In this document: piece by piece, positions 25,295 through 59,855 of the stretch
Position numbering within the stretch: position 1 is the stretch's first letter
Layout of the letters: the number at the start of each line of letters is the position of its first letter
DNA from: a virus
Taxonomy: Duplodnaviria; Caudoviricetes
Reading direction: 5' to 3' (one strand)
Virus record (IMG/VR): IMGVR_UViG_3300048834_000230
Coordinates: 1-59,982 of that record
Length of the DNA stretch: 59,982 nt
Made by a program: the position numbers and the translations under genes
Notes under the pieces: model-generated
Told to the model about the DNA's origin: nothing
The model's input: only the letters and a program-made list of their open reading frames with translations
Databases searched by the model: none

Positions 25295-25558
25295 ATGGGA
25301 AGCCGGAAGATTCTATTAATCATTGTCTGTTTGATTTTCATGCTATCTGCTGTAGGAGCAGAAGCAGGGTTATTTTTTCGACAAGGTAGGGGTTTTTTCC
25401 CTAATGCCCGTGGTGTAGCTGGTCGTGTTGGTGATCGTCAATCTCGTAGAGTCAATCGACGTTCCACAAGACAAGCTTATCGTGGTTACGGTTACAATTA
25501 CAACTATCGTTGCATTAATTGCAACAAAACGAAAGCAACAGCTATTCCTGTTAGTTAG
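25295..25558 (+). CDS. Secreted Arg/Gly-rich small protein
   Basis: Signal peptide ending AEA; AAGGAG RBS. Confidence 0.65.
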   Translation: MGSRKILLIIVCLIFMLSAVGAEAGLFFRQGRGFFPNARGVAGRVGDRQSRRVNRRSTRQAYRGYGYNYNYRCINCNKTKATAIPVS

Positions 25559-25581
25559 TGTGAGTACACTACGATTCAGGG

Positions 25582-26455: not shown

Positions 26456-29062
26456 ATGTTCTCAATAGGTGGGCAACCGGCAATCAATTCAGCACCCATC
26501 CTAAAGAGTCTTCGCAAAAGTCAAAGACGTACAGCATGGTGGCACTACAAAGTCAATTCATTTAAGCATGTTCGTGGTGCTTATCCTTCTATTGGTTATA
26601 TTCTATTAACCAAAGCTTCACTAGATCAAATAAACATCTATGAGCCTAATACTCTAAATGTAACTTCTGAAATTGCCATCCCTAATGTTATCATTGATAG
26701 CCTTGTAGCAGTTAATCCTGGTCGTGCTGTTACACCTGAAACAGTTTTTGTAGCTACATTAAAAGATAATCGCCATCACTTTGAGACTAGCTATCTCACT
26801 GAAGATTTCAATATAGTAGAAAAGCACGATAGACAATCTCTATCGTATCTCAAAGCTACTACTAATGGTGGTACGCCTTATACATGGCAATCACTGATTG
26901 ATTACCTATGGTCTATTCCTTTTGCTGCCATTGGTGGTCTAGTCCAAGACACAACTCTCTATCCTACTTCAAAGCCTTGTAACTATTTCTGCCGGGGTAG
27001 GTCTGTAGCTGATGTACTTCATTCTGTCTTAACTGATCTAGGATTAACTCTCTACCTGGATACTGATGGTTCTTATCATATCCGGGGGTTAGATACCAGT
27101 GCTATCACGTATGAAGATGCTTTCCAAGAAATGAAGCTTCAGAATATAATCAGAGAAGTACGACATTTAGATACTAACTTTTCTGAGATTCCTGGTAGAT
27201 TGGCTTTCTGTTTTCCCTCCAGAAAATATCTATCTGACAACGATCATCAATCTTTTGATAGTCGATTTCTAAAAGAGCCATACTATCAACAAGATAAAAC
27301 CACAAGTTCACCTTATTACTATGCAACATTAGATAATAATTTAACACTACCTGTTTATTGTAATCCTGTTGCTTTCTATAGCCCCCAAGGTGGTTCTGAT
27401 CCTGTTAATAAATCAGAAATTGATTCGTACATAGATAAGGTACAAGACAGATACCTACGGAAGATGGCTTCCAATTTTGGACCTGTTCATACTGTAGCTG
27501 GTCTAGTACCGATGTATCCTGGTCGTAGCTTAGCTGCTGTAACATGGTTCATTAACGCTACTGAATCTGGTCAAACAGGTATCCCCCAAACGATCTTAGA
27601 AGTTCCCGAATCAGCAGCTTATAACCATCGCGGCCCCATTTTTTCTTCCAGAGAAGGATACCCAAATTACCCTAGAAATGCTTTTAGTAATTATCCACAA
27701 CATAAATCTCTTGTGGTTAAACCTACTAGTTCAATTGAGAAAGAAAAATCTGGTACTGCAACCATTATCAATTATCAATTGAATTCGGATGGTACACCAA
27801 AAGAAGTAACATCTAGTGATATTGAGATACTTAATCTCACGAATACCACCCTTAAATCAACTGAAAAATATACGGCTGATTTCCAATGGGAAACCCAAAA
27901 GTGGGCAGTTTGGCCCGGAGCTAGTACCAATACAGATAATGGTGGTAATCCTACAACTAATACAGAAGCAGATACACCTGTTGTTAGATTTAGACTGTTA
28001 GAAGATTTGTCTTTAGGTGATGGCTATGCTGATGCACAACTTATCAATATCAATGGGGATGCTATTGATTTTGAAGGTAATGTACTAGGTAATCCTCCAC
28101 CAGTTCTCCCCTGGTTTCCTAATACTCCTTACGATGTTGGTGATAGATGTATTTCACCTACAGATGTTTTTGATACATTACCACCTTTTACGGATAAACT
28201 ATGGTCACAAGGAGATACCATACGATGTAAAGAGTTTCATGTTTCATCAAATATATTTGATTTATTTAGCGGTGAAACTCTTCTTTGGGAAAAAGCACCT
28301 AGCATGGGTACTGGTAAAATTGTAGTTGTTGACCCTTCAGAACAAGGTAGGTTTTATGGTTATGGTCCATACAATGTTCCTATTACTGGTGTTGAAGGTG
28401 GTCAAAATGTAAAAGGCTTTACTGGTGAGTGTTGTCATTTAGGTGATCCTCATGGTACTGATTATGCAGGTACAGGTTTACCTGGATACTTGATTATCAA
28501 CATGGAAGGACCAGCTAGGACTGTTGAAGGTGTAGTTTTAGCTGGTGGGGGTGGGGGCCAATTCTATGCACGCATAACCGGTTGGTATGGTGCTGCTCCA
28601 AATAATAGACCACCCAAGCTAACAACAGGGGGCGGTTCTGAAACTAATGAAAACTTACTAATCAATTGTAGATTAGATGAAGACATACCAAAAGCTGATA
28701 CAAAAATTCGTGCTGATTTTGATGAACAAACAGGAGATTGGGTACTCACTGATTACATTGTTCAACAGGAAGATGGTGGGGGTGATCCTGGTACCCCTGG
28801 TCAAATTATACTAGGTAAGCTAAAAACTGATTTAACTCGTTTAATGGGGTCAGTAGTAGTTGTTGTATTATCCTTTACAGGTGATAATCCTGGTACTGAA
28901 ATTACAGCCTATAATCCTGAAGATTTACTTGATCCTACAAATGGGTTTCAAGGAATTTTCCTAGGTAATAAAGATGGCCGGTGTACAGTGCTTTCTACTA
29001 GTACTGGTTATCACCTGATTGAAGTTCAAACCCCTAGAACAATACCATCATCTATTGTGTAA
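26456..29062 (+). CDS. Large tail/baseplate protein
   Basis: 868 aa; Tal/hub-like N-terminal region and repeated small beta-domains. Confidence 0.55.
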   Translation: MFSIGGQPAINSAPILKSLRKSQRRTAWWHYKVNSFKHVRGAYPSIGYILLTKASLDQINIYEPNTLNVTSEIAIPNVIIDSLVAVNPGRAVTPETVFVATLKDNRHHFETSYLTEDFNIVEKHDRQSLSYLKATTNGGTPYTWQSLIDYLWSIPFAAIGGLVQDTTLYPTSKPCNYFCRGRSVADVLHSVLTDLGLTLYLDTDGSYHIRGLDTSAITYEDAFQEMKLQNIIREVRHLDTNFSEIPGRLAFCFPSRKYLSDNDHQSFDSRFLKEPYYQQDKTTSSPYYYATLDNNLTLPVYCNPVAFYSPQGGSDPVNKSEIDSYIDKVQDRYLRKMASNFGPVHTVAGLVPMYPGRSLAAVTWFINATESGQTGIPQTILEVPESAAYNHRGPIFSSREGYPNYPRNAFSNYPQHKSLVVKPTSSIEKEKSGTATIINYQLNSDGTPKEVTSSDIEILNLTNTTLKSTEKYTADFQWETQKWAVWPGASTNTDNGGNPTTNTEADTPVVRFRLLEDLSLGDGYADAQLININGDAIDFEGNVLGNPPPVLPWFPNTPYDVGDRCISPTDVFDTLPPFTDKLWSQGDTIRCKEFHVSSNIFDLFSGETLLWEKAPSMGTGKIVVVDPSEQGRFYGYGPYNVPITGVEGGQNVKGFTGECCHLGDPHGTDYAGTGLPGYLIINMEGPARTVEGVVLAGGGGGQFYARITGWYGAAPNNRPPKLTTGGGSETNENLLINCRLDEDIPKADTKIRADFDEQTGDWVLTDYIVQQEDGGGDPGTPGQIILGKLKTDLTRLMGSVVVVVLSFTGDNPGTEITAYNPEDLLDPTNGFQGIFLGNKDGRCTVLSTSTGYHLIEVQTPRTIPSSIV

Positions 29063-29067
29063 ATAAC

Positions 29068-30321
29068 ATGGATTTAATCAATCAACTAGGTAATACTGAT
29101 ATGATGCTTATGGCATCCTATCCAAATTTCTTACCTGTATTCACTTCAATAGAGATTGTTAGAGCGGGTTCAGAGTCATCCCCTTTAAGATATGTTGATA
29201 TTAACCAAAGGTTACTAGAAACATTAGCTGCCCCTGGTGCTGTAGTTTGGAATCCTTCAACTAGAGAAGTATGGTTAGCTGGTGCTGATACAAAACAGAT
29301 TAGAAAATATGATGAATGGCTTACAAATATAGATGATCCAAATACATTAGTTACCATTCTTGAATCAGGTAATAATACAATCTATGGTGGTTGCCATTTA
29401 GGTGCTACTGGTGTAGGTCTTTTCAGGGATGTTATTCTAAATACTTTTCTAGTAATTGCTGGTGGTACAAAAATTTTTGCCATTGATATGCAATCTGGTT
29501 TTGTATCCAAGTGGTTTGATACTGCTACGCAAAACACAGAAATAGGAATTTCAAGGATTGTAGATATTTGTCAATTAAGTGCTACGACCCAACGGGGTCC
29601 TGGTGCCGCCATCATAGGTACTTTAGAAAATGGTAGATACTTCATAGGGGAAATCTATGGAGTAAATGCTATTAAAATTTGGAATACTCTTGATGCAGAT
29701 GTTACTACAGATATTCCTGGGGGTACTCGTACTACTAAACAAGTTTATGTTGGTTTAGGTCCATCTGGTGCTGCTAGTGTTTATGTCTGTCAAGAGAATT
29801 GGCAAGATGATGTATTCTTTGAAGAACTTGATAATCCTTTTGGTGGTACTCAACATTTTGAATCTACGGGAAGATGTATTGTTCGTAGATTTAGCAGAGG
29901 TGTTTTCGATGGGGACCCGATTCAAGGGGCTAATGTACTCTTTAGTTATGATATACCTATCCGAGTAAGTACCATTATACAAAATAATGGTTTTGATCCC
30001 CCATTTACAAGTGATATTAACATTGATCGTGAAGGTGGCGGTATAAAAACATGGGCTATTGATTCTCAATCCAATAGTGGAACACAACCTAGAGTTTTAC
30101 ATTACCGTGGTCGTTGTGGATTATTTTATTTCACACCTGTTGATAATGAGATTCCTTTTGCTGCTGTACCCTTTCTTAATCTAACATCAGCAGCAGGTTA
30201 TCGTTATTCAAAATGGTGGAGTACAGGAATAATCGAAAACCAAACTGCTCAACTTTCTGGGGGTGGTTATACGAACCTTCTTATAAACGGTTTAGGTACT
30301 GCCCCCCGCTATCTTATGTAA
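29068..30321 (+). CDS. Putative beta-propeller receptor-binding/tail protein
   Basis: Beta-rich repeats; last gene of the structural operon. Confidence 0.45.
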   Translation: MDLINQLGNTDMMLMASYPNFLPVFTSIEIVRAGSESSPLRYVDINQRLLETLAAPGAVVWNPSTREVWLAGADTKQIRKYDEWLTNIDDPNTLVTILESGNNTIYGGCHLGATGVGLFRDVILNTFLVIAGGTKIFAIDMQSGFVSKWFDTATQNTEIGISRIVDICQLSATTQRGPGAAIIGTLENGRYFIGEIYGVNAIKIWNTLDADVTTDIPGGTRTTKQVYVGLGPSGAASVYVCQENWQDDVFFEELDNPFGGTQHFESTGRCIVRRFSRGVFDGDPIQGANVLFSYDIPIRVSTIIQNNGFDPPFTSDINIDREGGGIKTWAIDSQSNSGTQPRVLHYRGRCGLFYFTPVDNEIPFAAVPFLNLTSAAGYRYSKWWSTGIIENQTAQLSGGGYTNLLINGLGTAPRYLM

Positions 30322-40624: not shown

Positions 40625-40709
40625 GGTTTTAGGTATCTATTTTCTTCTCCCAGAAAAAATGATATGTTGTTAGGTGTTATTTAATTTCTCTTTACAAGGA
40701 GTATGTAGC

Positions 40710-41147
40710 ATGTCAGCTTACGAAACCCAAATGGCGGGTATTTCTAAATCAATCAGCTATCTTGTTACAGCAGTCCGTGCTGGTACGATGATTTCTGATG
40801 CAAAGAATACTGCTTATCATGGATGGAATGTCCAAGGGTATTTGCAATGTATTTCTCTCGGAAGTCCTGTTGAAGTTCTAGCTAATGATTCTCCTGAAGA
40901 ACAAAAAGCTAAGTTACAACTTCAAGACTTGGCTATCTTAGGTGACTTCTGTGAATCACAAGAGTCTCTTGCTTATTCCGCTTCTGCTACTGCTGAAGCT
41001 AAGTTGAATGTTGTGCAAATCCTTACGATTGCACAAACGATTTTCTCAATTTTGAAGCAACTCGGCATCATCAAGAAACCACCTGTTAATCAGAATGGTC
41101 CTGTTGCCACTTCTATCACTGAAGCTGAAGAAGACCCACTAGGCTAA
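40710..41147 (+). CDS. Hypothetical protein with C-terminal amphipathic/hydrophobic helix
   Basis: ACAAGGAG RBS. Confidence 0.7.
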   Translation: MSAYETQMAGISKSISYLVTAVRAGTMISDAKNTAYHGWNVQGYLQCISLGSPVEVLANDSPEEQKAKLQLQDLAILGDFCESQESLAYSASATAEAKLNVVQILTIAQTIFSILKQLGIIKKPPVNQNGPVATSITEAEEDPLG

Positions 41148-41154
41148 TCCTAAT

Positions 41155-41192
41155 AACTCTAGGTAGTTGAAATATACTACCTAGAGTTTTTT
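41155..41192 (+). terminator. Intrinsic terminator
   Basis: AACTCTAGGTAGT/ACTACCTAGAGTT stem followed by a T-run. Confidence 0.85.
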
Positions 41193-41207
41193 ACAGGGAA
41201 GTATTAA

Positions 41208-41339
41208 ATGGAGAAACCTGAATGCTGCGAACAGTGTGGTAGATTAGTAAAAGAACATGACATACGTTTTTGTTCAAAGTGTGGTGCCTTAGTGCATATA
41301 CATTGTACTTGTGACTGTGAAAAGGAATCTGAAAAATGA
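41208..41339 (+). CDS. Small Cys-rich Zn-finger protein (43 aa)
   Basis: CEQC...CSKC...H..C.C.C. Confidence 0.55.
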   Translation: MEKPECCEQCGRLVKEHDIRFCSKCGALVHIHCTCDCEKESEK

Positions 41340-41584
41340 ACCTCACTCCTGAAACTCTAGCTCCCTTAGCTGTAGGTCTAGGTTCGGTAGTAGCTTACTT
41401 CTATCCACAAATCAAATCCTGGTATGTCGATAGAAAGACTGTTCCTACCCAACCCCCAATCAATGAGATAAATACTGTGATTCAGTATTTCATGGCTAAA
41501 GGGTATGCCCCTGGTATTGATGCGTCTGTAACAACTGCCAAGTTGCTCTACGATGCTATACCCCTTCCAACAAAGAACGCTTAA
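41336..41584 (+). CDS. Small membrane protein
   Basis: N-terminal TM; AAGGA RBS. Confidence 0.7.
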   Translation: MNLTPETLAPLAVGLGSVVAYFYPQIKSWYVDRKTVPTQPPINEINTVIQYFMAKGYAPGIDASVTTAKLLYDAIPLPTKNA

Positions 41585-41601
41585 TTAAGGAATTCTTAAT
41601 C

Positions 41602-42231
41602 ATGGAAAAAAACAAAGTCATTGGTATAGGTGGTTTTCTCCTAGCCTTGATTATGATTCTCCAAAATCTAGGTATTGTTGTTATCAACCCTGATAACCCT
41701 GATACTCCAGTTACACCTAGTAACCCTGATATCGTTGTCCCTGATGAACCTAAACCGGATGACCCTACTCCGGTAATACCTGATAACCCAAATCCACCAA
41801 TTGATCCTAACAAGGATATTCTACTTACTATCGAAGCAGAAAATTTCCCTGTTGTACCCCCTAGCTATGAAGCTATCTCTAAACCTGTTTATGATGTTCT
41901 TGTAGCTTGTGAAAATGCCCCTGGTTCATTGATCCTTGCTCGTAGTCATGCCCAATGGTCTAGGTTATTTCTTCTTCCAGAAGCAAGCATGATGAGAACT
42001 ACTGGTTCTTATAGAGAACAGCGTATTAAAAGCCTGCAAGCTATGCTTAGTATTCACAATATGGATTCGATCTGTCCTGGTCTAAGCATAGCTGTTGATG
42101 GTGTTATCAATCAGGCTCTAGGCGGAAAGCAAGATAGAGCATTAACATCAGATGATTTTTTGGCTCTATCTAAGGCTCACGATGCTATTGCTGGTCGTGC
42201 CTTTGAAGCTTTCCAAAGGATTGTTCAATGA
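41602..42231 (+). CDS. Membrane-anchored periplasmic protein with Pro/Asp linker
   Basis: N-terminal TM; PDNPDTPVTP...PDDPTP linker; helical domain. Confidence 0.75.
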   Translation: MEKNKVIGIGGFLLALIMILQNLGIVVINPDNPDTPVTPSNPDIVVPDEPKPDDPTPVIPDNPNPPIDPNKDILLTIEAENFPVVPPSYEAISKPVYDVLVACENAPGSLILARSHAQWSRLFLLPEASMMRTTGSYREQRIKSLQAMLSIHNMDSICPGLSIAVDGVINQALGGKQDRALTSDDFLALSKAHDAIAGRAFEAFQRIVQ

Positions 42232-42455
42232 CTGCTTCTAATCCTAATTCAGAACCAAAGCAAACCTTAGCCTGTGATTTATGGGTACAAACTGTATTAG
42301 GTGAAATCACCTTATGTTTTAACATTGATGACCAACAAGTAGACGTAAATCTTTCATTAGCTAATACAAAAAAACTAATAGAGAATTTACAGTTAGCCCT
42401 GTTTGAGACTGAAGAATTTTTATCACGCACTACTGTCAAAGGAGTAAAAGAATAA
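42228..42455 (+). CDS. Hypothetical protein
   Basis: ATGA overlap. Confidence 0.55.
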   Translation: MTASNPNSEPKQTLACDLWVQTVLGEITLCFNIDDQQVDVNLSLANTKKLIENLQLALFETEEFLSRTTVKGVKE

Positions 42456-42622
42456 TGTCTACTACACTAGAAGCTACTAATGAAACAATTGAAATGACAA
42501 CCACTTGTGATGCTTGTGGTAAAACTGGTCCTATCAATTCAACGAACTTTGATCCGATTAGAGAAATGATTGTTTGTCCTTCTTGCGATCAAATCCTAGG
42601 TGATAAGGACATACAGGTTTAA
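42455..42622 (+). CDS. Small Zn-ribbon protein (55 aa)
   Basis: AAGGAG RBS; CDACG...CPSC. Confidence 0.6.
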   Translation: MSTTLEATNETIEMTTTCDACGKTGPINSTNFDPIREMIVCPSCDQILGDKDIQV

Positions 42623-42624
42623 TC

Positions 42625-42897
42625 ATGCCTACTTTCAATCTACGCTCAACTACAGCAGTAGTCATCAAAGCATACGAATATAATGGTGCGGATAGTCCAA
42701 AACCATTACTTAAAGATTACCAGTATGCTGCTGGTCTAACTACTTATGGAGAAGTCACACAAGTAGGTTCATCTGTAACTGACTATTCAGCCGGTGATAT
42801 TGTTGTTTACCCCAGTGGTATAGGAACTCCAACAATGATGAACGGTATCGAAGTCAGAATTATGGATGAAACTAGTATTCTCTACCATATTTCTTAA
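42625..42897 (+). CDS. GroES/Cpn10-like co-chaperonin
   Basis: GEV..VG..V...SAGD.V.Y...GT......E..IM.E..IL. Confidence 0.75.
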   Translation: MPTFNLRSTTAVVIKAYEYNGADSPKPLLKDYQYAAGLTTYGEVTQVGSSVTDYSAGDIVVYPSGIGTPTMMNGIEVRIMDETSILYHIS

Positions 42898-42909
42898 AGG
42901 ATTAGTTGC

Positions 42910-45033
42910 ATGTCATGGAGAGCAAAGAAACTACACCTACTCAAAGGTGCTAGATTATTTCCGACTGATGCGGTTAATCTTAAACCTGATAAGATTGTCC
43001 AAATGTATAAGGACAGTTTTACAGGAGTACGGATTGATCCTGAAGCAAAAGAAGAACTCATGTCGCTACAGGCTGTGCCTGATGGTGATATGGTAGCTAT
43101 GTCTACAGGGATGGCAGATACAGGTAAGGGTAAATTATCCATACCTTTTATCTATGCTCATCAAGCTTATCCTAAACTCTGGCCTAGTCTCCCTCAAGAA
43201 ACTGGAAATTGTTTTATTGCCGGTACAATGGTACTTGCAGATAACATTAAACCTATTGAACAAATAGAATTAGGCGATAAGGTTTGGACAGGAGAAGGTA
43301 AACTTACCGAAGTTATTAGTAAGAGAAAAATTCTTACTCATAAACCTTTAATTAAAATTTGTCCTGTAGGTAGCCTGCCAATTATATGTACTGACGATCA
43401 TAAAATACTTGTTTATAGACTTGGAATGATAGGCAAAAAGCGTATCAGCAAATCTATGTATAACAGGGTATTAAACGGTACATACAAAGAAAAATCCCCA
43501 ACAACTGTAGTAGAACAGTTTGAAAGCCGGAAGCCTATATGGATTAAAGCTAAAGACTTAAAAGAAGGTGATTGTCTCTTAACACCTATTAAATTTAAGA
43601 ATATGAAAGTACCAAAGGATTGCCCTGGTAATCTCTCTCAATCAGAAGAAGGGTTATTCTTATTAGGATGCTTTTCAGGTAATGGTTATGCTGGTGGTTC
43701 TACAATGGAGATAGTTAGTCCTAATGATGGACTAATCCAAAAATTAGTAGAAATTCTTCAGTTACATGGATTTAATCCAAAACTATGCCCATCTAAGGGA
43801 TGTACCAAAATAAGAGTACATTCTGTTGACCTTGTAACGTGGCTTAGAAAGCATTTTTATAATAAGGATAAAAACAAAGCATATCCCGGCTGGTTAATTG
43901 GTAGCAAAGCTTACTTGCATGGTTTATTTGAAACTGATGGACATTACTCCGAAAAAAGAAAAACCAATACTATAGATTCTACCTCACTAGCTTTGATATA
44001 CGGTACTTATGCTACTTTAGTTAGCCTAGGTTATACACCTTGTATCAATATGGTAAGTAGAAGTAAAGGAACTTACGCTAATGCAAAACCGTTATACAGG
44101 TTAATATGGATAGAAGACAAAAAAAATAATCAAGTATGGATGGATAATAAATTTGTCTGTAGACCTATTCGTAAATTTGAATTAGTAGAAGGACCTAATG
44201 AAGTTTATGACATTGGTGTAAAAGATGAACACCATTCATTTATTGCTAATGGTCATGCTGTTTCAAACTGCGTAGGTAAAGCTGGTAAGAATAGTGGTAT
44301 CTTACTACTAGGTGTAGAAGCTGCCCTAGCTCAACCTGATGAAGAAACAGGTATCACAGAAGGTTTCCCTGAAGTCCCCTTAGAACTACAACCGCATGGT
44401 ATCCTAGCTTGGGAACATCTATACGGTGAACGTGGTCATAGGGGTCAAGGTGCTAACTGTTCTAAGCTTATCTTAGTATCATCCAAATCTAGTGGTATGA
44501 TCCTAAGAAAGAACTACCCTGAAGCTGGTATTGATTTTACAAAAGAAAATACCCGCCTCTCTGTCAATTGGGGTGCTAGAGGTACACCTGATAAGATTCT
44601 TGCCCTAGGCAAATCAAATCCTATCAGGAATGCGGTAGACGTACCTAATCACGAAGTAGCTAGAGACTTCATCAACAACGGATACCCTATTTGGGTGTGT
44701 AGTTCTCTAGGCTTTTCTGAAATCTGTGATGCTAATGGATATTCAGAACGTCAAGGTGGTTGGGGTCACTCTTGGATAGTTGCCGGTTTTGATGATCGCC
44801 CTGAAACAGTTAAAGCCTATGGTTTCCCATTGTTCCTATTCATCCATGATTGGGGTTTGTGGAATAAAAATACCAAGGGTATTACTATTAAGGGTACAAA
44901 CATCAAGATACCCCCTGGTTCTTTCTGGGCAGATGCTCGTTTACTCGATCAGTGCGATATGACAGCACTATCAGGTTTAACTGGTTGGATGCGTAAAGAA
45001 CTTCCCGATTTCAGTGGTGGTCTACTAGGATAA
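42910..45033 (+). CDS. Papain-like (C1 family) cysteine protease interrupted by an intein
   Basis: Q-E-T-G-N-[C]V, W.H...AG.DD, F...HDWG, GSFW. Confidence 0.85.
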   Translation: MSWRAKKLHLLKGARLFPTDAVNLKPDKIVQMYKDSFTGVRIDPEAKEELMSLQAVPDGDMVAMSTGMADTGKGKLSIPFIYAHQAYPKLWPSLPQETGNCFIAGTMVLADNIKPIEQIELGDKVWTGEGKLTEVISKRKILTHKPLIKICPVGSLPIICTDDHKILVYRLGMIGKKRISKSMYNRVLNGTYKEKSPTTVVEQFESRKPIWIKAKDLKEGDCLLTPIKFKNMKVPKDCPGNLSQSEEGLFLLGCFSGNGYAGGSTMEIVSPNDGLIQKLVEILQLHGFNPKLCPSKGCTKIRVHSVDLVTWLRKHFYNKDKNKAYPGWLIGSKAYLHGLFETDGHYSEKRKTNTIDSTSLALIYGTYATLVSLGYTPCINMVSRSKGTYANAKPLYRLIWIEDKKNNQVWMDNKFVCRPIRKFELVEGPNEVYDIGVKDEHHSFIANGHAVSNCVGKAGKNSGILLLGVEAALAQPDEETGITEGFPEVPLELQPHGILAWEHLYGERGHRGQGANCSKLILVSSKSSGMILRKNYPEAGIDFTKENTRLSVNWGARGTPDKILALGKSNPIRNAVDVPNHEVARDFINNGYPIWVCSSLGFSEICDANGYSERQGGWGHSWIVAGFDDRPETVKAYGFPLFLFIHDWGLWNKNTKGITIKGTNIKIPPGSFWADARLLDQCDMTALSGLTGWMRKELPDFSGGLLG
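43210..44268 (+). mobile_element. LAGLIDADG intein (353 aa, Cys1 to Ser-Asn, Cys+1)
   Basis: CFIAGTMV; CTDDH; LLGCFSGNG and GLFETDG; VYDIGV..HSFIANG..SN/C. Confidence 0.92.
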
Positions 45034-45037
45034 AATA

Positions 45038-45358
45038 ATGCCCAAGAAAGTATGTATATTCGTAACTGGTGCTATTAATTCAGGTAAGACTACTTGGATT
45101 AATGACTCTGGTTTGGACAATCTCTGTAACCGTACCTATGCTGGTATTACTTTTGCTTGTCAAGAATTCTTTAACAAAGCAAAAGCAATTAGAGATACTT
45201 CAGATTACATTGCGGCCTATGAAATCCAATGTAATGAAGATGCTATCCGCAAAGCCTCTAGTGTACGTCGAGACTTAGAAGAAGAAGGATGGTTGATTCT
45301 TACTAAACATATTGTAAATCAAGATCAGCAAGAAACTCTATCGGAGCTAATCGCATGA
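45038..45358 (+). CDS. Small P-loop NTPase/kinase-like protein
   Basis: VTGAINSGKTTW. Confidence 0.6.
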   Translation: MPKKVCIFVTGAINSGKTTWINDSGLDNLCNRTYAGITFACQEFFNKAKAIRDTSDYIAAYEIQCNEDAIRKASSVRRDLEEEGWLILTKHIVNQDQQETLSELIA

Positions 45359-46590
45359 AGCCTTTAACAATACTTCTATTATTTCTTACCCTGGGAAACT
45401 TTTCTCTGGGAAAAGAAATGCCCCTGCCTGCCCCTACAGATTATACCCCAATTATTACATGGTATGCTGCCCTGTATTCAATCAAAAATGAACCTACACC
45501 TGCCCCATCGAATGATGAAATCAAAGTCGGTGATAAGTGTATTCATTGTAAGGGAACAGGTACGCTTACCTTAGATGGGGGTAATCGAAATGCCCCTTGC
45601 CATCATTGTAAAGCTGATGGTGTAGCCAATGAGGGTGATCCTATCATCACAGGGAACTACACTCAAGAACCTGAAGTTCCACAAGCTGTCCCCTTTATTG
45701 AAAAGCCTTTAGTTCCACCTGTTGTTTTCCCTCCAGAAAAACCTGTATTAGATTTACCTGATCGTGTTTGGTGTTTCATCTATCAGGGGTCTACTTACTA
45801 CTATGATCCTGAAACAGATATCTTTGTCAGTAAGCAAGGAAAGAAATTCAAGATAGATATTCCACAAACAGAATGGATGAAAGAAGGTTTTGTAAAAATC
45901 TGTACTCACGATGCTACTGGTAGGCAGATTAAATGCGAACCATGTAAACTCTTTCAAGTCGATATCAATGCTGACTTAATTCCAAAATCAAAACCTATAA
46001 CAAGGCTCAATACTCATACCAATTCGGAAGTCCAAACAGCCGATCAGTATGCTACTCCCCAAGCCTCTATTGATCGAATGTTGTCTGTACTTAATCCACA
46101 ACCGCATGAAACATTCCTAGATGTAGGTAGCGGTGATGGTCGTGCTGTCATTACTGCTGCAAAGAACTATGGATGCTATGCAATTGGAATTGAAATTGAT
46201 CCTGATAGAATTCAATTAGCTTACGCTAATGCTGAAGAAGCTGGTGTTGCTAATCAAGTTGAATTTATTCAAGGTGATTTCAAACAGATAGAATGGCCCC
46301 AAGCCGACGTTGGCTTTGTCTATCTCTTCCCAGAAGACTTGTACGATATCCGTAATCGTCTTCTAGGTTTAGATCGGTTTGCCTCTTACGTGCATCAAGT
46401 TCCAAATCTACCAATGTACTCCAAAGACAATGGTGACTTTTACCTATGGGATTACAATGATGTTTTTACTGTTTGGAATGGTCGAACCTATCAAGGTCCC
46501 CCTTGTAGTAAACCCGGATGTACGATGTGTAATTCTATTCGTGCCTCAATAGCTGAACAAAAATCCCATCACTTAGGAGTATTGCCATGA
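45355..46590 (+). CDS. Signal-peptide protein with DnaJ-type Zn finger and class I SAM methyltransferase
   Basis: Signal peptide; CIHCKGTG...CHHCKADG; TPQ..IDRML, LDVGSGDGR, GIEID, QGD, YL. Confidence 0.85.
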   Translation: MKPLTILLLFLTLGNFSLGKEMPLPAPTDYTPIITWYAALYSIKNEPTPAPSNDEIKVGDKCIHCKGTGTLTLDGGNRNAPCHHCKADGVANEGDPIITGNYTQEPEVPQAVPFIEKPLVPPVVFPPEKPVLDLPDRVWCFIYQGSTYYYDPETDIFVSKQGKKFKIDIPQTEWMKEGFVKICTHDATGRQIKCEPCKLFQVDINADLIPKSKPITRLNTHTNSEVQTADQYATPQASIDRMLSVLNPQPHETFLDVGSGDGRAVITAAKNYGCYAIGIEIDPDRIQLAYANAEEAGVANQVEFIQGDFKQIEWPQADVGFVYLFPEDLYDIRNRLLGLDRFASYVHQVPNLPMYSKDNGDFYLWDYNDVFTVWNGRTYQGPPCSKPGCTMCNSIRASIAEQKSHHLGVLP

Positions 46591-46681
46591 CATGGTTTCC
46601 ATTCCTACTAACCTGTGCTGTCTATCTTGTTTCTCTTATCCTTTGGATACTCATTAAGAAAAACATTATCTAGGGTGTATC

Positions 46682-47329
46682 ATGGATGTTAAAAAGTTCT
46701 TTGAGGATTGTGCTACTTTATCTGAAACCTATAGCCTAGCTCCTATGAGTGCTGGCTTTATTTATGATTGCATTAAAGAAGATAAAACCTACAGTGCGGT
46801 AGGTCATTACAGGGATAATAATACCCAAGATGAATTACTAGCCTTTGTCTTAATGGAACTCTATCGTTCTCGCAAAGGTCAAAAGGTAGCCCCCACACCT
46901 GCTTACATTCCAGCTAAGAGAGCTTACGATTTTTGTGTTAATGTAGATGATTGGGTAAGAAACCCTATTCTATCTGATGAAGAACTAGTTGGTTTATTTG
47001 CTCGTAGTATCTTCCAATACACTCTTAATGTCATTTCCGATCTACAAGATGGAACTCTAGTTATTCCTGAACCTACTAGACTCTGGTATCCAAGCAAGAA
47101 AACCCCTTTACCATCTGATATAGACTTCATCCCTAGATGGCGGATATCATGTAATGCGGAAGACTACGATCTACTACATGCCCTATCTAAGAATCCTGGT
47201 CTACAAATCAAGAAGACTACTCAACGCCAACGAACAATGCTGATTCAGGGTCATGCAATCAGGGATTCGCTAGAACAACAATACAAGGATTATATTGATG
47301 GCAAAAACATATACGACATATCTAGGTAA
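46682..47329 (+). CDS. Hypothetical protein
   Basis: 215-aa ORF. Confidence 0.7.
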   Translation: MDVKKFFEDCATLSETYSLAPMSAGFIYDCIKEDKTYSAVGHYRDNNTQDELLAFVLMELYRSRKGQKVAPTPAYIPAKRAYDFCVNVDDWVRNPILSDEELVGLFARSIFQYTLNVISDLQDGTLVIPEPTRLWYPSKKTPLPSDIDFIPRWRISCNAEDYDLLHALSKNPGLQIKKTTQRQRTMLIQGHAIRDSLEQQYKDYIDGKNIYDISR

Positions 47330-48815
47330 TGACTATGCCCTAGACTTGGCTTATGCCCGTAGAGAAAGTGAAATCATTTCATTTGTTCTTTATACTAATT
47401 CATCCAAAACAACAGTTTATGATTTAACTGGTGCTGAAGTCCGGGCAGAAGTTCGGGTAGAAGATGGTAGCGACATTCTTCTTGATCTTAGTCCAGCTAT
47501 TTCCTCTCCAGAAACAAATGGGATAATTACAATATCTCCATATATTTCTTCTGATATCGAAGCACAAACTGCGAAGTATGATATTCTTTTGACTCTTCCA
47601 TCAGGAGAACAAATCTATATTGTTCGTGGTAACTTCCGCATTGATCCATCTATTACTGATGATAGTGGTGTTGATCCTACTCCTGTTCCAACAGGTGCTA
47701 ATCTTCAAGACTTAATCACTTCAGCCTACACTAGAGGCATTGCAAAACTACCTTTCGGTCAAACTAATATCACCGATACGGTTGTCACACTTAACGAAGC
47801 TGGTTTAGTGATTGAAGGACATGGTTCATTATGGGATTTTAACCCTAATCTCAATGGTTCTCATTCTAAAATCATGTGGGCTACAAATAACACAACTAAG
47901 CCTATGATTGATTGCCGTGGTATTCATCAATACTGGCGTAATTTTTCTCTCTGTGGTGATAATAGAAACTTACAGTATGGGGGTAAACCTACTGCTGGTA
48001 TTTTAGTATCAGATGATGCTGGTCTAGGTCCTGGTAAACATACCTTTGATAAGTTCACTATCGAAAGGTGTGTTGCTGGTATTCAAGCAGCAGAACTCAC
48101 TACAGATTCCAACTGTGATGTTAGCTCTGTACTTAATGGAAACTGGCGTCACTGTCAGAAAGCATTTTATTCTAAAGGAACACAAGTCTTAGATTGGTCT
48201 TTCTATAAGGGTCAATTCTCTAACCCTGATGAATCTGCTGGTAAGGCGGCAGTCTTTCACTATGAAGGTGGTGGTAGTCTTACTAGTACAGCCTTTGCTG
48301 TTGTCTCTACCACCCCTGTAGACGTACTACGCTTATCACAAATTCATACTGGTGGAAAAATTGGACATAATGCCAGTAGTTTTCTTATTAGCAGTCTTAA
48401 AGTAGATACCCTATCAGCAGGAACTACACTTATTAATGTCGATCAAACATCAGCAGAGTGTAATTTCATGCCTGCTACTGTTGCTTTTAATGATTGCAAA
48501 ATCTCTGGTGTTAGTGATTCTTATGCTGCTGAATCAGAATCAATGGCTATTCTTGGTGGCGGTATCCGAGTCCATTTTTACCGTACTCGTTTTGCTATAG
48601 ATATTACTGAATCTGTTATCTGGCATACATCGAATTCTGACATAGATGGTACTGAAATATGGTTTGTCAACTGTAAACTCTATGGTGTTGAAAACCCATT
48701 AGATATACTTAATATCACAAATTCAGACGGTCCCATCTTTCTACATGTAGTTGGCTGTACAAATAGCTCTAGCTACATTCCTGATTATCACGGTGTTATT
48801 GAAGGAGCTATCTAA
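47298..48815 (+). CDS. Tail spike-like protein: BppU-like N-domain plus right-handed beta-helix
   Basis: DLTG....EVR, G.I.I, YDI, G...I.P.IT; LQ..I......LP.G...I.......IEG.G pectate-lyase-like start. Confidence 0.75.
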   Translation: MAKTYTTYLGNDYALDLAYARRESEIISFVLYTNSSKTTVYDLTGAEVRAEVRVEDGSDILLDLSPAISSPETNGIITISPYISSDIEAQTAKYDILLTLPSGEQIYIVRGNFRIDPSITDDSGVDPTPVPTGANLQDLITSAYTRGIAKLPFGQTNITDTVVTLNEAGLVIEGHGSLWDFNPNLNGSHSKIMWATNNTTKPMIDCRGIHQYWRNFSLCGDNRNLQYGGKPTAGILVSDDAGLGPGKHTFDKFTIERCVAGIQAAELTTDSNCDVSSVLNGNWRHCQKAFYSKGTQVLDWSFYKGQFSNPDESAGKAAVFHYEGGGSLTSTAFAVVSTTPVDVLRLSQIHTGGKIGHNASSFLISSLKVDTLSAGTTLINVDQTSAECNFMPATVAFNDCKISGVSDSYAAESESMAILGGGIRVHFYRTRFAIDITESVIWHTSNSDIDGTEIWFVNCKLYGVENPLDILNITNSDGPIFLHVVGCTNSSSYIPDYHGVIEGAI

Positions 48816-49414
48816 TGTTTCGTACCCTTGCCCCTGCAAACAATGGTTCAATTGTTACTTACAATCAAGAAGAAGTCCTAGTTGTTGCCTCTAGTGCAAC
48901 TGCCCTAACATGGCTTTTACCTGCCGTCTCTGGTTTACTCACTGGTACAACCATTCATGTCACTAACACACTTGCTGGTACAATTACTGTCAAGGACCCT
49001 ACTAATACAACCACCCTAGGTACAGTAGTTGCTGGTTCCCTAGGTACTTTCAAACTAGCTGGTAATGCCACCTGGATAAATGCTCGTAGTGATCTAGCAG
49101 CAGAATTTGCAACTGTTACCCAATCTACATCAATTTCAACTGGTGTTACAATCAATTCTACATCAGGTGCAATTACACCACAATCATCAACTATTGCCCC
49201 TGGTGAGTCTGTTGCCTTTATTGTCACTAACAATAAAGCAATTAGTAATTACAATGTTCTAATCAATCTTGCAAATTATACTGGTACAGGTAGCCCTGTC
49301 TTGACTGCTACCCGCCTAACTAGTGGTAGTTTTGTCATTTTAATTCAGAACATACACCCTACTCTTGACGTAGAAATAGATGACACTACATCTATTCGAT
49401 TCCGCATTGTCTAA
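48815..49414 (+). CDS. Ser/Thr-rich tail fibre-like protein
   Basis: TVTQ.TS..TGVTIN...G.IT motif common in phage fibres. Confidence 0.65.
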   Translation: MFRTLAPANNGSIVTYNQEEVLVVASSATALTWLLPAVSGLLTGTTIHVTNTLAGTITVKDPTNTTTLGTVVAGSLGTFKLAGNATWINARSDLAAEFATVTQSTSISTGVTINSTSGAITPQSSTIAPGESVAFIVTNNKAISNYNVLINLANYTGTGSPVLTATRLTSGSFVILIQNIHPTLDVEIDDTTSIRFRIV

Positions 49415-49738: not shown

Positions 49739-50422
49739 TTATGAGGGCAAGTCATCAACATTGATAACTCTTGCTGCTGGCTTAGATACTGTTGGTACTT
49801 CTGGCATACCCTTCCTAGGCTTTACCTCTAGTTTCACTTTTGCTGGTCCATCATACATATCAGCTAACTCTTGCAAACTTAGTTTGATATCAGCTGTTAT
49901 TGTTGGGTACATAACATCTCCTACTGTAGGTAATTTTGGAATCAAAGGTCTTCTAATTACAAACATCTTATCATAGGGTAAATCACCTGCAAAACTAGAT
50001 ATGTTCATAATACCCTCATGGACCCATAAATAATACTCTTCACTCTCTGTATTAGTGTAGGCAACAATACGTTCTAATCTGTAACTTTCTATTTGAAAGT
50101 AATCCCTCTTATATGGTTTCTTACCATATGGCAAACTATAGTCTGTTACTGATCTAGCCCTATCTACCCTTAATACTTTTTTCTCCCAAATCATAGCATC
50201 AACAACTATCTCTTCCCCACTTCGACTACCCCCAAACAGAATAGTTTTGTATGCTGTCTTCGCTCGTTTTACATACGGACAAATCTCTACATAGTATTCA
50301 TCCCCGATCATACGTGCATCTGCAAGCTGATCCTGATAATCCCTAACATCCATACCACAAAGCCTACAGGTACGATCTAAACGAAACTTATGCCCATGAG
50401 TTGCCATGTTACTCCCGCTCAT
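49739..50422 (-). CDS. Hypothetical protein, N-terminal H-C-C-C Zn motif
   Basis: H.F...C..CG...CP; FGG..SG. Confidence 0.65.
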   Translation of the reverse strand: MSGSNMATHGHKFRLDRTCRLCGMDVRDYQDQLADARMIGDEYYVEICPYVKRAKTAYKTILFGGSRSGEEIVVDAMIWEKKVLRVDRARSVTDYSLPYGKKPYKRDYFQIESYRLERIVAYTNTESEEYYLWVHEGIMNISSFAGDLPYDKMFVIRRPLIPKLPTVGDVMYPTITADIKLSLQELADMYDGPAKVKLEVKPRKGMPEVPTVSKPAARVINVDDLPS

Positions 50423-51885
50423 GCTACTACTCCCTTAACTACCTGTGCCATGTCAACCAACTGCCACTTCAAGTTATCAACCATTCTCTGTTGAACTAGT
50501 TCATTCTTATTAGGACAGAAATGGTGCCTTGGATACCACTCATCAAATACGCTTGCATGTTCCTCTACTCCCAAACTAAAAGCTAATTCCGTTAAACGGT
50601 TATCAAGTCTACGCCACCCTGTTACCCGCTGAATCTCTTTCTGATCCATAGGCCCCTTTAAGTAGCACAATGTTTGCCTACTCTTGAACCTTATAGTTTC
50701 TTCCCCAGAAAAAGTATCGGAATACAAGAATTCTCTTTTCTTCAAAGTAGAGATAATTTCACGATCTGCTAGGTTAATAGCCTGTGAAACTTTCTTTCTA
50801 TCTAAATCAGTTTTGAGTAGCCCTGTGATCCATGTTCCTACATTGCTCAATGCCTTGTAGTCGATATCACCTGGATTCTGCGTACTCAAGACAATGCCGA
50901 GTCCAAACGCTCTAGCCTGTTTGATAAGCGTAAGTAGCAATTGCTTTGTCACTGGATTACTGATTGCCGGTATCAATCCTTGGCATTCATCAATGTAAAG
51001 CAATGCTTTCAATTCGTGGCTAGCTGGTTGTGTCTTAACCCAAGTTAGAATCTTACTGAAGAGAATCCCTAGAAAGAACTGTTGTTCCTCTGGTAATAGC
51101 TGTACTGTGTTGAGAATTGAACAGCAGGGAACTCCCCCACCATTCCGAAACAACTTACCTACATCTAGCGTAGGTTTAGATTGCCACTTCTTGAATGCAA
51201 AACTATTGCTCAATGTTTCCAATCTCTTCTGTAGTAGTTTCGTATCATGCTTGTATAGGTCATCACCTACTTCCAAGTAGCTACTGATAAGTTCCGGGGT
51301 AGCTGACTTATTACCTTCCCAACATGCCCAAATTGCCCGTTCTAACAAAACCTTATGGTCCCCTGTAGGCCCTGATTTTAGCCCTAGAATCGACAGCAAG
51401 GAACTCGCCAAAGCGGAAGCCTCATTTAGTCTCTCTAGCCCTGAATTGGGCAGGTTTTCCCCACCAAACAAGCCGAGAACCATACCCGTATCCCCTACCC
51501 CTGGAGTGTAGAGCCTGATATCGGTAGTCCCTAGAATCCTCTCCCCCAAATGATGGGGCAATCCCCATTCCCTGTGACAGTCTTTAGTTGCCTGTGCTAG
51601 AGCCTCATGGATAGCGGGAATATCCATAGCATTAGACCCATCAAACGCTTTGAATTCCTCACTACCAAACTCTGTAGGCATATAGAGTAAATTACCTATA
51701 TCACCTTTAGGGTCGATAGCGATAATAGGTATTCCATTGAGTAGACAAGACTCTAAGATAGAAATACCTAACCCTGTCTTACCGCTCCCGGTACTCCCTA
51801 CAATCACACAATGCCTAGTCAAGTTATCTAGTGCAAAATTAGGATTGCCTTGTTCACCCTTACCAATGTAAGCATGTCTTGTCAT
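50419..51885 (-). CDS. HerA/FtsK-like (DUF87/DUF853) ATPase
   Basis: TRH..IVGSTGSGKT, IDPKGD, YIDE, KQARAFG, STQNP.D.DYK. Confidence 0.9.
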   Translation of the reverse strand: MTRHAYIGKGEQGNPNFALDNLTRHCVIVGSTGSGKTGLGISILESCLLNGIPIIAIDPKGDIGNLLYMPTEFGSEEFKAFDGSNAMDIPAIHEALAQATKDCHREWGLPHHLGERILGTTDIRLYTPGVGDTGMVLGLFGGENLPNSGLERLNEASALASSLLSILGLKSGPTGDHKVLLERAIWACWEGNKSATPELISSYLEVGDDLYKHDTKLLQKRLETLSNSFAFKKWQSKPTLDVGKLFRNGGGVPCCSILNTVQLLPEEQQFFLGILFSKILTWVKTQPASHELKALLYIDECQGLIPAISNPVTKQLLLTLIKQARAFGLGIVLSTQNPGDIDYKALSNVGTWITGLLKTDLDRKKVSQAINLADREIISTLKKREFLYSDTFSGEETIRFKSRQTLCYLKGPMDQKEIQRVTGWRRLDNRLTELAFSLGVEEHASVFDEWYPRHHFCPNKNELVQQRMVDNLKWQLVDMAQVVKGVVA

Positions 51886-58554: not shown

Positions 58555-59855
58555 TTATAGTGAATTGAAATTGATTGAACGACCATTGCTAGAATCGTCT
58601 TGTGATTCCTTGTATGGTCCCCCGTGATTAGCGTCCAAGTATCTGCCGAGTGCATCGGCTCTACTTTGGCGGATTGCATCAGGTGCAGATTTGCACAGAG
58701 GTACGTGATATCGGCTAGCTTCCGTGATTGTGCAATTCAATTCGTAGCTACGCTGAACTATGTCCCTGATATCAGCACCAGTTAGATTTTCAGCATCGTA
58801 TTGATCGTATTCCCGATTGAATTGCTTGCAGCAGATATCCCAAATCTGTTGACGGCCTGATTTGTTTGGTACGTCAAAATACCACGTTCCGGCTGAAAAT
58901 CTTCTCCGTAGTTCTGGTGGTAAACTAGCTATCTGATTCATTGAAGCTATAAAGAAAACCCTTTCACCACCAATAGCGTGAAGAACTTGCATAGCTTGCC
59001 TAATCTGCTTTTCAGACTCACCAACTAAGCTACCCTTGCATGCGTTCAAATCAAATCGGATAGCTTTTGCCCCGAAATGGTTTGCAGCAGCTTTAGCAAC
59101 TAAAGACTTACCACAACCAGAAACCCCGTAAGCTAATAACCCTGTCCACCTATTGTCTTCCATAGCTGTTAAGAGCGTTCCTAAAGCATCCCCAGACGTG
59201 CCACTAGATTCTGTTGAGACTCCAGCTAAAGCTTTTTCAATTTCTTCAATACGCACGACTACAGCGGGTTTACGGGGACCATTGAAATAGCGTTCAAGGT
59301 ATTCCCTAATTGCTTGCAAACCACCAATCGAGTCAAAATCCTCTGTTGAGGTTTCAACAGATAACCCCGGTGTGTCATTGATTTGCTTTCTAGCATTGTC
59401 TCGCAGGCGAACGATATCAATTCCCGATTTGGTAAGTGATTGTGCTGTTAGCTGTTCCGCACGAAAAGAACTTGAACCCCTCAACTCGATAGCAAATTGT
59501 TGGGATTCTGATTCAGTTAGTTCTTTTCCATACGTCGATTTGTATAATTCAGAAACCTTATTAGATAACTGCTGTTCTGTGGGCAGAGGTTCATCCACAA
59601 AACTAACTGACTGAAGTAAATCACCGGGAATAGCTGATTCCAGAACTAATCCTATCAAGCTACGCTTTGTAGCCTTAAATACTTCTCGTAAATTGAGAAC
59701 GCCCTGCATTGTTTTCGGATCATTCCAGAACCAGTGAAGATTGTGAACGATGAGAATTGCACCTGATTGAAATTTCTTGCATACCTCTAGAGCTACTGCT
59801 ATTCCATACTGCTTAACTGCTTTAATTTCAGCCGGATCAATGTTTTGCAATTGTG
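58555..59855 (-). CDS. Ycf46-like AAA+ ATPase (C-terminal part; start at 178 across the origin)
   Basis: F..IGGL, GLLAYGVSGCGKSL.AKA, GSLVGESE, N.I..LPPEL.RRF, TGADI. Confidence 0.9.

Follow-up and report, generated by a model that had tools for sequence, protein, structure and literature searches.

The viral record IMGVR_UViG_3300048834_000230 (Caudoviricetes; 59,982 bp, complete, with direct terminal repeats) was analysed over its whole length, which we refer to as the window. Ten open reading frames (ORFs) run head to tail on its plus strand between 40674 and 46590, and three of them are our main subject. The first (41602-42231, + strand, 209 amino acids (aa)) encodes a protein with a transmembrane (TM) helix, a Pro-rich linker and a helical domain, which we call the partner. 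The second (42910-45033, + strand, 707 aa) encodes a cysteine protease whose exteins (354 aa) are interrupted by an intein (353 aa), and the third (45355-46590, + strand, 411 aa) encodes a zinc-ribbon protein with a signal-like N-terminus, zinc-ribbon motifs and an S-adenosylmethionine (SAM) methyltransferase domain. An original prediction, made from the letters of the window alone, had described the genes of this region as one envelope-targeting operon and as a candidate non-canonical lysis system. All the elements it listed are present on the plus strand at 40674-46590. According to our results, the protease, the partner and the zinc-ribbon protein form a module that is found with related proteases elsewhere, and a lysis role of this module is our preferred reading (probability of about 0.55).

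The protease and its intein

The N-extein (aa 1-100; 42910-43209, + strand) has a pro-region-like N-terminus and contains the oxyanion Gln at aa 96 (column Q95 of our alignment A1), and the C-extein (254 aa; 44269-45033, + strand) has the catalytic Cys as its residue 1, the catalytic His as its residue 167 and an H-D-W motif. A word-index search identified 33 other relatives of 332-381 aa, none of which has a precomputed Pfam domain; the closest one, P0002, is 74% identical across the C-extein. A word-index search for longer relatives gave two only, both of them intein-bearing. Q95, C100, H266 and W294 are invariant in the 33 homologues, and the motifs of the wider family read Q..GDCVSH / GSWxHAM / NSWGxWN. 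The family contains 712 representative clusters (50% identity) at E<=1e-3 and 258 at E<=1e-10, and the look-alike Atlas clusters of the family are 85-100% viral. No signal peptide is found on the window protease, nor on 172 of the 178 family proteins with an intact start.

For modelling, the natural intein-less homologue P0002 and its alignment stood in for the spliced window protein. The AlphaFold2 model of P0002 has a mean predicted local distance difference test score (pLDDT) of 94.0 and a predicted TM-score (pTM) of 0.93. Foldseek found 228 PDB matches to this model at E<=0.001, with C1 peptidases (xylellain, Legionella Lpg2622 and cathepsins) at the top, and VIA-align found 304 chains at Z>=8, including xylellain (3ois_A, Z 19.5, root-mean-square deviation 3.1 over 231 residues), pro-Der p 1 (Z 17.6) and about fifty further C1A enzymes (Z 15.6-17.1). 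The nearest models in BFVD are uncharacterised 'Peptidase_C1' proteins of uncultured tailed phages. PF00112 is above its cut-off in a distant family member (G014, 30.4 bits vs 20.7), and in one look-alike Atlas cluster it is present on 14% of the members. Judging from the modelled fold rather than from Pfam, the window protease is a papain-fold (C1A-like) cysteine peptidase. Since C1A zymogens align from about residue 25 of the P0002 model and mature enzymes only from about residues 50-73, the N-terminus of the protease appears to resemble the last part of a C1A pro-region.

Compared with C1A peptidases (xylellain 3OIS, pro-Der p 1, procathepsins K/L/B and Legionella Lpg2622), the phage family has the same fold over about 200-247 residues (Z 15.6-19.5) and the same order of Gln, Cys, His and Asn/Asp-Trp, and the wider phage family also shares NSWG. 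The part of the C1A pro-regions that lies nearest to the mature domain is the part that aligns with the N-terminal segment of the phage proteins. Unlike C1A peptidases, the family is phage-borne, signal-less, tied to a periplasmic partner and intein-carrying, with H-D-W in the clade of the window.

The intein (353 aa, aa 101-453; 43210-44268, + strand) starts with Cys, ends in ...VSN and is followed by a +1 Cys (residues 101, 453 and 454 are Cys, Asn and Cys, respectively), and it contains a two-motif LAGLIDADG homing endonuclease (LAGLIDADG_3, 35.8 bits vs a cut-off of 22.5). Hint-type models matched below their cut-offs (Intein_splicing with 25.5 vs 35.8 bits, Hint_2 with 16.4 bits, and Hom_end_hint). 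At the predicted splice junction, P0002 reads ...LPQETGN and continues directly with CVGK..., without an insert. By these features of the sequence, the insert is an intein, and its excision is predicted to restore a contiguous protease of 100 + 254 aa, in agreement with the 354 aa that the original prediction had given for the spliced enzyme. Because the intein directly precedes C100, which does not vary among the 33 homologues, the first residue of the C-extein would be both the +1 splicing nucleophile and the presumed catalytic Cys.

Inteins are also seen in other members of the family. Among the 150 best representatives, 31 have the size and the offset of a full insertion near this site, and eight of the 10 odd-length members that we scanned have intein or endonuclease domains, four of them (P0105, P0127, P0153 and P0179) with two separate Hint/intein stretches. 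The offset suggests a second insertion in P0037, P0081, P0122 and P0124. The C-extein match of P0105 ends at query residue 168, beside the catalytic His 167, so both catalytic motifs seem to be intein targets. Two odd-length members (P0123 and P0142) have no Pfam family, and P0142 is a partner fusion according to our partner hidden Markov model (HMM). The window has a second intein-like insert in its large terminase (9743-12190, + strand, 815 aa; Terminase_3 26.6 bits), with a Cys-initiated Hint-like start at about aa 134 and a LAGLIDADG_3 match of 21.1 bits, under the cut-off of 22.5; a BLASTP comparison of the two inteins of the window gave no significant similarity (E 0.41).

Known phage inteins (in terminase, helicase and polymerase genes) share with this one the class-1 type, Cys 1, the terminal Asn, the +1 Cys, LAGLIDADG and the insertion at an active site. 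It differs from them in that its host protein is a cysteine peptidase and its +1 residue is the catalytic Cys. A narrow literature search found no intein at the catalytic Cys of a protease, and as far as that search shows, an intein lodged at this position is new.

The partner and the zinc-ribbon protein

We fetched 35 viral loci and 26 loci from bacterial/archaeal assemblies that contain relatives of the protease, which gave 53 distinct loci after removing identical proteases. (A profile scan of genome contigs with alignment A1 produced 9 pattern matches, none of them a relative; the 26 loci were found with alignment A3.) BLASTP of the other operon genes of the window against the 35 viral loci found no counterparts. 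An HMM built from the genes upstream of the protease homologues matches one of the 277 window ORFs, i.e., the partner at 41602-42231 (E=1.1e-4). After iteration, 30 of the 35 viral loci and 25 of the 26 cellular loci had a partner; of the 53 distinct loci, 47 have it, with 41 cases immediately upstream of the protease, five downstream and one overlapping, and the stop and start codons of partner and protease often overlap. In the window, three small lineage-specific genes (42228-42897) separate the two.

The window partner consists of an N-terminal TM anchor (aa 8-28), an acidic Pro-rich linker (about aa 29-78) and a helical domain (aa 87-208), which AlphaFold2 models as a compact bundle of 5-7 short helices (pLDDT 88-98 across aa 81-209). 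Fold searches with this domain gave no relative (best Foldseek E 1.4; best VIA-align Z 7.0, which is noise for helical bundles), and sequence and look-alike searches with the partner returned the window's own protein or nothing usable. A complex prediction for a near-cognate pair, using the P0002-led alignment and aa 78-209 of the window partner, scored 0.39, 0.00 and 0.00, which bears neither way on an interaction.

Downstream of the protease, 28 of the 53 loci have a zinc-ribbon ORF with a signal/lipoprotein-type N-terminus, PxPxP and two CxxCxGxG-type motifs, and a lipobox-like motif is found in 16 of the 53 loci (using a crude pattern). The window version (45355-46590) has a hydrophobic signal-like segment (aa 3-19), PxPxP, and one CxxCxGxG plus one CxxCxxxG motif (about aa 62-90), so that the common zinc-ribbon core lies within its N-terminal 100 residues. 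Where its relatives carry thioredoxin or other tails, it has a SAM methyltransferase domain (about aa 236-325; Methyltransf_31, 43.6 bits). In summary of the neighborhood, three of the ten window 'operon' genes (partner, zinc-ribbon protein and the protease itself) recur in related loci, and the GroES-like gene, two small zinc-ribbon genes, a P-loop gene and the methyltransferase domain are lineage-specific. The region therefore does not hold up as one operon, as had been proposed; the conservation of the neighborhood, which the original prediction had suggested checking, applies to partner, protease and zinc-ribbon protein, and not to the remaining seven genes.

Fusions connect the three parts of the module. 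In P0142, P0164 and P0182, a single polypeptide begins with a TM anchor, continues with the partner domain (HMM E of 1e-7, 8e-5 and 9e-10, respectively) and then has the protease; P0145 and P0173 show the same fusion by eye only, and in P0034 a TM anchor is attached directly to the protease. The partners of L045 and L048 continue into a zinc-ribbon-like Cys-rich tail. The zinc-ribbon lipoprotein of L036 matches Thioredoxin_2 (28.1 bits vs a cut-off of 27), and PDB searches with the L019 and L036 proteins gave thioredoxins in 8 of 8 and 20 of 21 matches, respectively, all of them weak (E 1e-3 to 0.1). A CxxC plus a cis-Pro-like motif is seen in L039 and L026, by eye only. Basic residues before the anchors and acidic linkers after them suggest that the bulk of the anchored proteins lies outside the cytoplasm, and given this topology, the fused anchor forms would have their protease domain in the periplasm. 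Our strongest conclusion is that the protease, the partner and the zinc-ribbon protein are one functional unit in the cell envelope; the natural fusions tie the three together and so place the action of the protease there. The linkage of the partner and the fusions thus bear out the earlier view of an envelope-directed module around the protease. Whatever its function, the partner-protease-zinc-ribbon module with its fusions is new, and our literature search found no description of this partner module or of a C1-type phage lysis enzyme.

Small ORFs with a TM-like segment are enriched near the partner-protease pair: such a segment is found in 125 of the 234 small ORFs at <=1.2 kb vs 62 of the 303 at >=2.5 kb (odds ratio 4.5, Fisher p 2e-15; predictor and ORF calls alike are crude, and the loci, being related, are not independent). 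We note that a conserved neighbor (cluster c14, about 287-343 aa) is encoded about 0.5-2.7 kb upstream of the protease in L007-L009, L012, L015-L018, L020, L028 and L030, with a weak Glyco_tranf_2_4 match (25.9 bits vs a cut-off of 27.5). An HNH-type ORF (by motif) lies just downstream in L020, L028 and L030, which would place the module beside packaging genes, in a lambda-like position.

A putative lysis role

Among 60 window ORFs, hmmscan with Pfam found no lysozyme, transglycosylase, amidase, M15, M23, CHAP or NlpC/P60 domain, and PHROGs on 30 window ORFs gave no endolysin. A six-frame search for 11 wall-hydrolase families (Phage_lysozyme, SLT, Amidase_2, GH19, M15_4, GH108, VanY, Amidase_3, M23, CHAP and NlpC/P60) was negative in all 16 records, comprising the window and 15 protease-bearing viral relatives (10 of the 16 are >=90% complete). 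Nine more families (Hydrolase_2, GH25, M15_3, Muramidase, Lysozyme_like, Phage_lysozyme2, Glucosaminidase, PG_binding_1 and LysM) were found in none of five terminal-repeat-complete genomes. As positive controls, the six-frame search detected DNA_pol_A in G000 and G001 and PF00112 in G014. The statement that this complete genome has no recognisable endolysin, on which the original prediction was built, is thus confirmed by the Pfam, PHROG and six-frame searches. As far as these profile searches can tell, the protease is the only candidate wall-degrading enzyme in the window and nine near-complete relatives (10 genomes).

The phage context, the membrane-protein neighborhood and the lack of a recognisable lysin in ten near-complete genomes lead us to infer that the protease acts in lysis as an endolysin equivalent, with redox and anchoring helpers; this is the reading to which we give a probability of about 0.55. 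The module would consist of a signal-less C1A-like peptidase with a pro-region-like segment, an anchored periplasmic partner and an exported DnaJ-type zinc-ribbon protein. In this phage, intein splicing would first complete the protease. Late in infection, the spliced enzyme would reach the periplasm via holin lesions, and in some relatives it would be exported directly as the anchor-partner-protease fusion. The partner may position or activate the protease in the periplasm, and the zinc-ribbon/thioredoxin protein may handle thiol-disulfide chemistry (keeping the catalytic thiol reduced, or releasing the pro-region) and possibly also open disulfide-linked wall proteins. The protease would then cut a load-bearing polymer of the envelope (wall proteins or peptide cross-links) and so replace a conventional endolysin.

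This scheme requires a holin, and we found no convincing one in the protease region. In a hydropathy scan of 91 non-overlapping ORFs, the best holin-like ORF was at 25582-25953 (+ strand, 123 aa, three predicted TM segments); it has no Pfam family, and its role as a holin is putative. Its neighbors are a signal-peptide ORF (25295-25558, 87 aa) and an N-terminally anchored ORF (25931-26452, 173 aa, weak PAS match), and the cluster (25295-26452, + strand), inside the structural region, could be the real holin/regulator set of the phage. A PDB sequence search with the large proteins beside this cluster (26456-30321) gave nothing useful.

Several known systems resemble parts of the module. CHAP and NlpC/P60 endolysins are likewise phage papain-superfamily cysteine peptidases, and wall opening is proposed for the present family too. 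The closest earlier case is N5 of mycobacteriophage Lysin A, a predicted domain that is described as matching the 'large papain family' (PMC3314691). Unlike CHAP and NlpC/P60 endolysins, the window protease is not matched by their HMMs, its fold matches C1A, no wall-binding domain was found with it, and its lytic role is putative. Cwp84 of Clostridioides difficile, which processes the S-layer precursor, likewise combines a C1 fold (Z 15.8, 236 residues) with a surface protein layer. Unlike the phage protease, Cwp84 is a housekeeping enzyme that a bacterium secretes; it also has lectin-like and wall-binding domains, and it has no partner module. As in the lambda cassette (holin S, endolysin R, spanins Rz/Rz1), there is a signal-less enzyme together with an inner-membrane-anchored periplasmic protein, an outer-membrane-type lipoprotein in the relatives and an enrichment of small TM proteins nearby, and the fused anchor-partner-protease forms resemble SAR endolysins. 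Unlike the lambda spanins (as defined in PMC6139136), the partner is compact and helical, the helper genes flank the enzyme, and the lipoprotein has a zinc ribbon with or without thioredoxin, the window version being without a lipobox.

The partner and the zinc-ribbon protein were also considered as spanins, as the membrane proteins of the region had been called spanin-like helpers. The partner has the TM anchor of an i-spanin, but its helices form a compact domain and not a coiled coil, and it is also fused to the protease. The zinc-ribbon protein was rejected as an o-spanin, as the window version is 411 aa long and has no lipobox Cys, and the protease separates the two genes. The compact helical partner, the fusions and the position of the helper genes on both sides of the protease led us to drop the spanin comparison.

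A more specific version of the lysis reading, which we regard as unlikely, is that these phages, many of them on Planctomycetota, lyse their hosts by dismantling a Cys-rich, disulfide-linked protein wall instead of peptidoglycan, by combining reduction by the zinc-ribbon/thioredoxin protein with the partner-held protease. The link to Planctomycetota counts in favour of the lysis reading in general. Half of the cellular loci (13 of 26) are in Planctomycetota assemblies, namely Pirellulaceae (3, one of them in a 7.8-Mb chromosome), the complete genome of Anatilimnocola sp. NA78 (1), Pirellulales (4), Planctomycetaceae (4) and Thermoguttaceae (1, on a 922-kb contig), and several copies lie in prophage-like regions of chromosomes. 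Among the fetched homologues, the one nearest to the window C-extein is that of the Anatilimnocola sp. NA78 prophage locus (42.5% identity). In PMC12673574, planctomycete walls are described as having appeared protein-dominated, with Cys-rich YTV proteins, and as having later been found to contain peptidoglycan components; PMC10632474 reports that some peptidoglycan-synthesis genes are dispensable in P. limnophila. A protein-rich wall and dispensable peptidoglycan genes make a protease-plus-redox route plausible, and neither of them tests it. No account of how phages exit planctomycetes was found in the literature searched. The low-G+C loci (32-40%) L045 and L048 (Promethearchaeota), L049 (SAR202) and L046, L050 and L051 (Flavobacteriales) have the partner downstream of the protease. 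They lie in bins of unrelated phyla and are probably mis-binned phage contigs, and are therefore poor evidence of host range.

A number of points count against a lysis role of the module or against its planctomycete version. C1A peptidases are not known to cut peptidoglycan. A review (PMC10318531) places wall-cutting papain-like enzymes in the NlpC/P60, CHAP and amidase groups and not in C1. PF00112 matched neither the N-extein, nor the C-extein, nor the whole ORF of the window, so that of the earlier C1-type assignment the papain fold stands (P0002 model, 3ois_A) and the family match does not; PDB sequence searches with the C-extein and with the family profile found nothing. The window protein and P0002 have H-D-W where the wider family has the papain N-S-W, i.e., the third catalytic residue differs. 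No wall-binding domain was found on the 10 odd-length family members, and PG_binding_1 and LysM were absent from the five complete genomes. Six of the 53 loci have no detectable partner (L031-L035, which contain the most distant homologues, and L057, with only about 900 bp of upstream sequence). The window zinc-ribbon protein lacks a lipobox Cys, and its methyltransferase domain is hard to square with the periplasm; as SAM is unexpected there, either export of the protein does not occur or its domain does not function as a methyltransferase. The best holin candidate is 17 kb away from the protease region. The absence of endolysins is an absence at the HMM level, for which there was no reference rate of lysins overlooked by such searches in divergent phages from metagenomes. 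The built-in controls for GH19, GH108 and Muramidase gave no signal in any of the genomes, and a new lysin could be among the scanned window ORFs that lack a family match (about two thirds). As for the hosts, the other 13 cellular loci are in non-planctomycete bins, i.e., Flavobacteriales/Flavobacteriaceae (4), Aquaspirillum (2), Promethearchaeota (2) and one each of Peribacteria, SAR202, Verrucomicrobiaceae, Paludibaculum and an unclassified bacterium, some of which are probably binning errors or mis-binned viral contigs. The G+C content of the window is about 39%, compared with 58-60% in the planctomycete chromosomal loci, so the host of the window itself cannot be read from the planctomycete link of its family. 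The planctomycete association made in the original prediction is supported for the family.

Other explanations differ mainly in where the protease acts and in whether it is the lytic enzyme. A conventional or novel-fold endolysin may be hidden in these genomes, with the module as an accessory that processes or activates envelope or lysis proteins, or that removes an outer protein layer once the wall has been cut, much like the action of spanins or mycobacteriophage LysB on the outer layer. Divergent lysins can escape HMM searches, and the candidates would include the many window ORFs without a family, among them the large proteins at 26456-30321 beside the holin-like cluster, and the SGNH-type DUF4886 hydrolase at 5648-6676. 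We nevertheless consider this explanation unlikely in view of the empty searches (0 of 16 records for 11 families and 0 of 5 for nine more), which were able to detect DNA_pol_A and PF00112. A somewhat less probable alternative is that the module acts on the envelope without lysis, either by destroying receptors or wall proteins (blocking superinfection or helping progeny release) or as a virion entry enzyme with the partner as its inhibitor; in phage T4, Spackle inhibits the gp5 lysozyme. Our evidence for the envelope (linkage and fusions) serves this explanation equally well, and in L003, L004, L010 and L011 the module sits between a putative portal gene (a 663-aa ORF that we read as portal, without a Pfam match) and a Laminin_G_3 tail-fibre-like gene, and in the window a beta-helix tailspike-like gene (47295-48815) is two genes downstream. 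The protease, however, is free-standing (330-380 aa) and not fused to tail or internal virion proteins, the phages would be left without any recognisable lysis enzyme, and adjacency and fusion into one polypeptide fit a cooperating pair better than an enzyme and its inhibitor.

Improbable in our view is an effector-immunity pair, in which the protease is a wall-degrading toxin and the partner its immunity protein, used for competition or for delaying lysis, similar to the Tae/Tai effector-immunity pairs of the type VI secretion system (T6SS). A signal-less papain-fold enzyme tightly linked to a small exported protein would look like this, and so would the copies in prophage-like chromosomal regions, but an immunity protein would not be expected to be fused in cis to its toxin or to a zinc-ribbon helper, and the 10 odd-length members showed neither a T6SS domain nor any other domain for delivery. 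To a role of the protease in the cytoplasm (host takeover, anti-defence or capsid maturation), with its envelope neighbors as passengers, we give the smallest chance. It would explain the general lack of signal peptides, the position of the gene after the replication module (DNA_pol_A at 35796, primase at 38528) and the presence of an intein, as inteins usually occupy replication and packaging genes. It is at odds with the partner-protease and anchor-protease fusions, which place the protease outside the cytoplasm, and with the linkage to the partner in 47 of the 53 loci, often by overlapping stop and start codons; for capsid maturation in particular, L001 and L002 carry a separate DUF2213 protein (a family that we take to be prohead-protease-like), and the protease gene of the window is far from its head genes.

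With these alternatives weighed, a phage protease family that has exported partners and occurs without a recognisable conventional lysin is a concrete candidate for a non-canonical lysis enzyme. If the lysis role is true, phage lysis would gain a new catalytic class as well as new accessory proteins, and the module would provide reagents for opening planctomycete cells and explain the missing endolysins in many metagenomic phages. If the protein-wall version is true, these phages would have a lysis system in place of an endolysin, in which intein splicing is needed before the enzyme works.

Other genes of the window

Upstream of the partner, the region contains a 157-aa ORF (40674-41147, + strand) with a single hydrophobic stretch (aa 111-127), a Cys-rich, zinc-ribbon-like 43-aa ORF (41208-41339, + strand) and, directly upstream of the partner, an 82-aa ORF (41336-41584, + strand) that is a possible membrane protein by hydropathy. 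The N-terminal hydrophobic stretch of the last one (aa 7-23, score 1.51) is weak and under our stricter hydropathy threshold. The three lineage-specific ORFs between partner and protease are a 75-aa ORF without a family match (42228-42455, + strand), a 55-aa zinc-ribbon ORF with CxxC...CxxC (42455-42622, + strand; all zinc-ribbon Pfam matches are below cut-off) and a 90-aa GroES-like ORF (42625-42897, + strand). The GroES-like label is based solely on a match to PHROG 3188 ('co-chaperonin GroES', E=1.1e-5, aa 40-89) and a sub-threshold Pfam match to ADH_N; Cpn10 was not matched. Between the protease and the zinc-ribbon protein there is a lineage-specific 106-aa ORF (45038-45358, + strand) with a Walker-A-like GAINSGKT motif, P-loop-like by eye and without a family above cut-off.

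Other genes recognised in the window encode the intein-bearing large terminase, a decoration protein, the major capsid protein, UDG, a PD-(D/E)XK nuclease, an AAA_24 ATPase, DNA polymerase A, primase, RusA, HerA-like and AAA ATPases, an SGNH-type DUF4886 protein and a Laminin_G_3 protein. A tRNA scan of the window found none. In tblastn searches against GenBank phages, P0002 and the major capsid protein were unmatched, and the polymerase matched actinophages only at about 23% identity, which gave no cultured relative and no hint of a host. The DUF4886 protein (5648-6676, + strand, 342 aa; 35.3 bits vs a cut-off of 26.7) belongs to what is presumably an SGNH-type hydrolase family and may be a surface-glycan or wall esterase; it has no BLASTP counterpart in the fetched loci, which span the protease neighborhood only.

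Downstream of the module, the 506-aa protein encoded at 47295-48815 (+ strand) was read by eye as a right-handed beta-helix of the tailspike/depolymerase type, and its N-terminus has a match to PHROG 1084. The next ORF (48815-49414, + strand) matches PHROG 18251, and both lie outside the main block of structural genes (about 9.7-30 kb). The minus-strand arm contains a HerA/FtsK-like ATPase (50419-51885; HerA_C, 37 bits) and an AAA ATPase (58555-59850; 55.2 bits) amid small unannotated ORFs.

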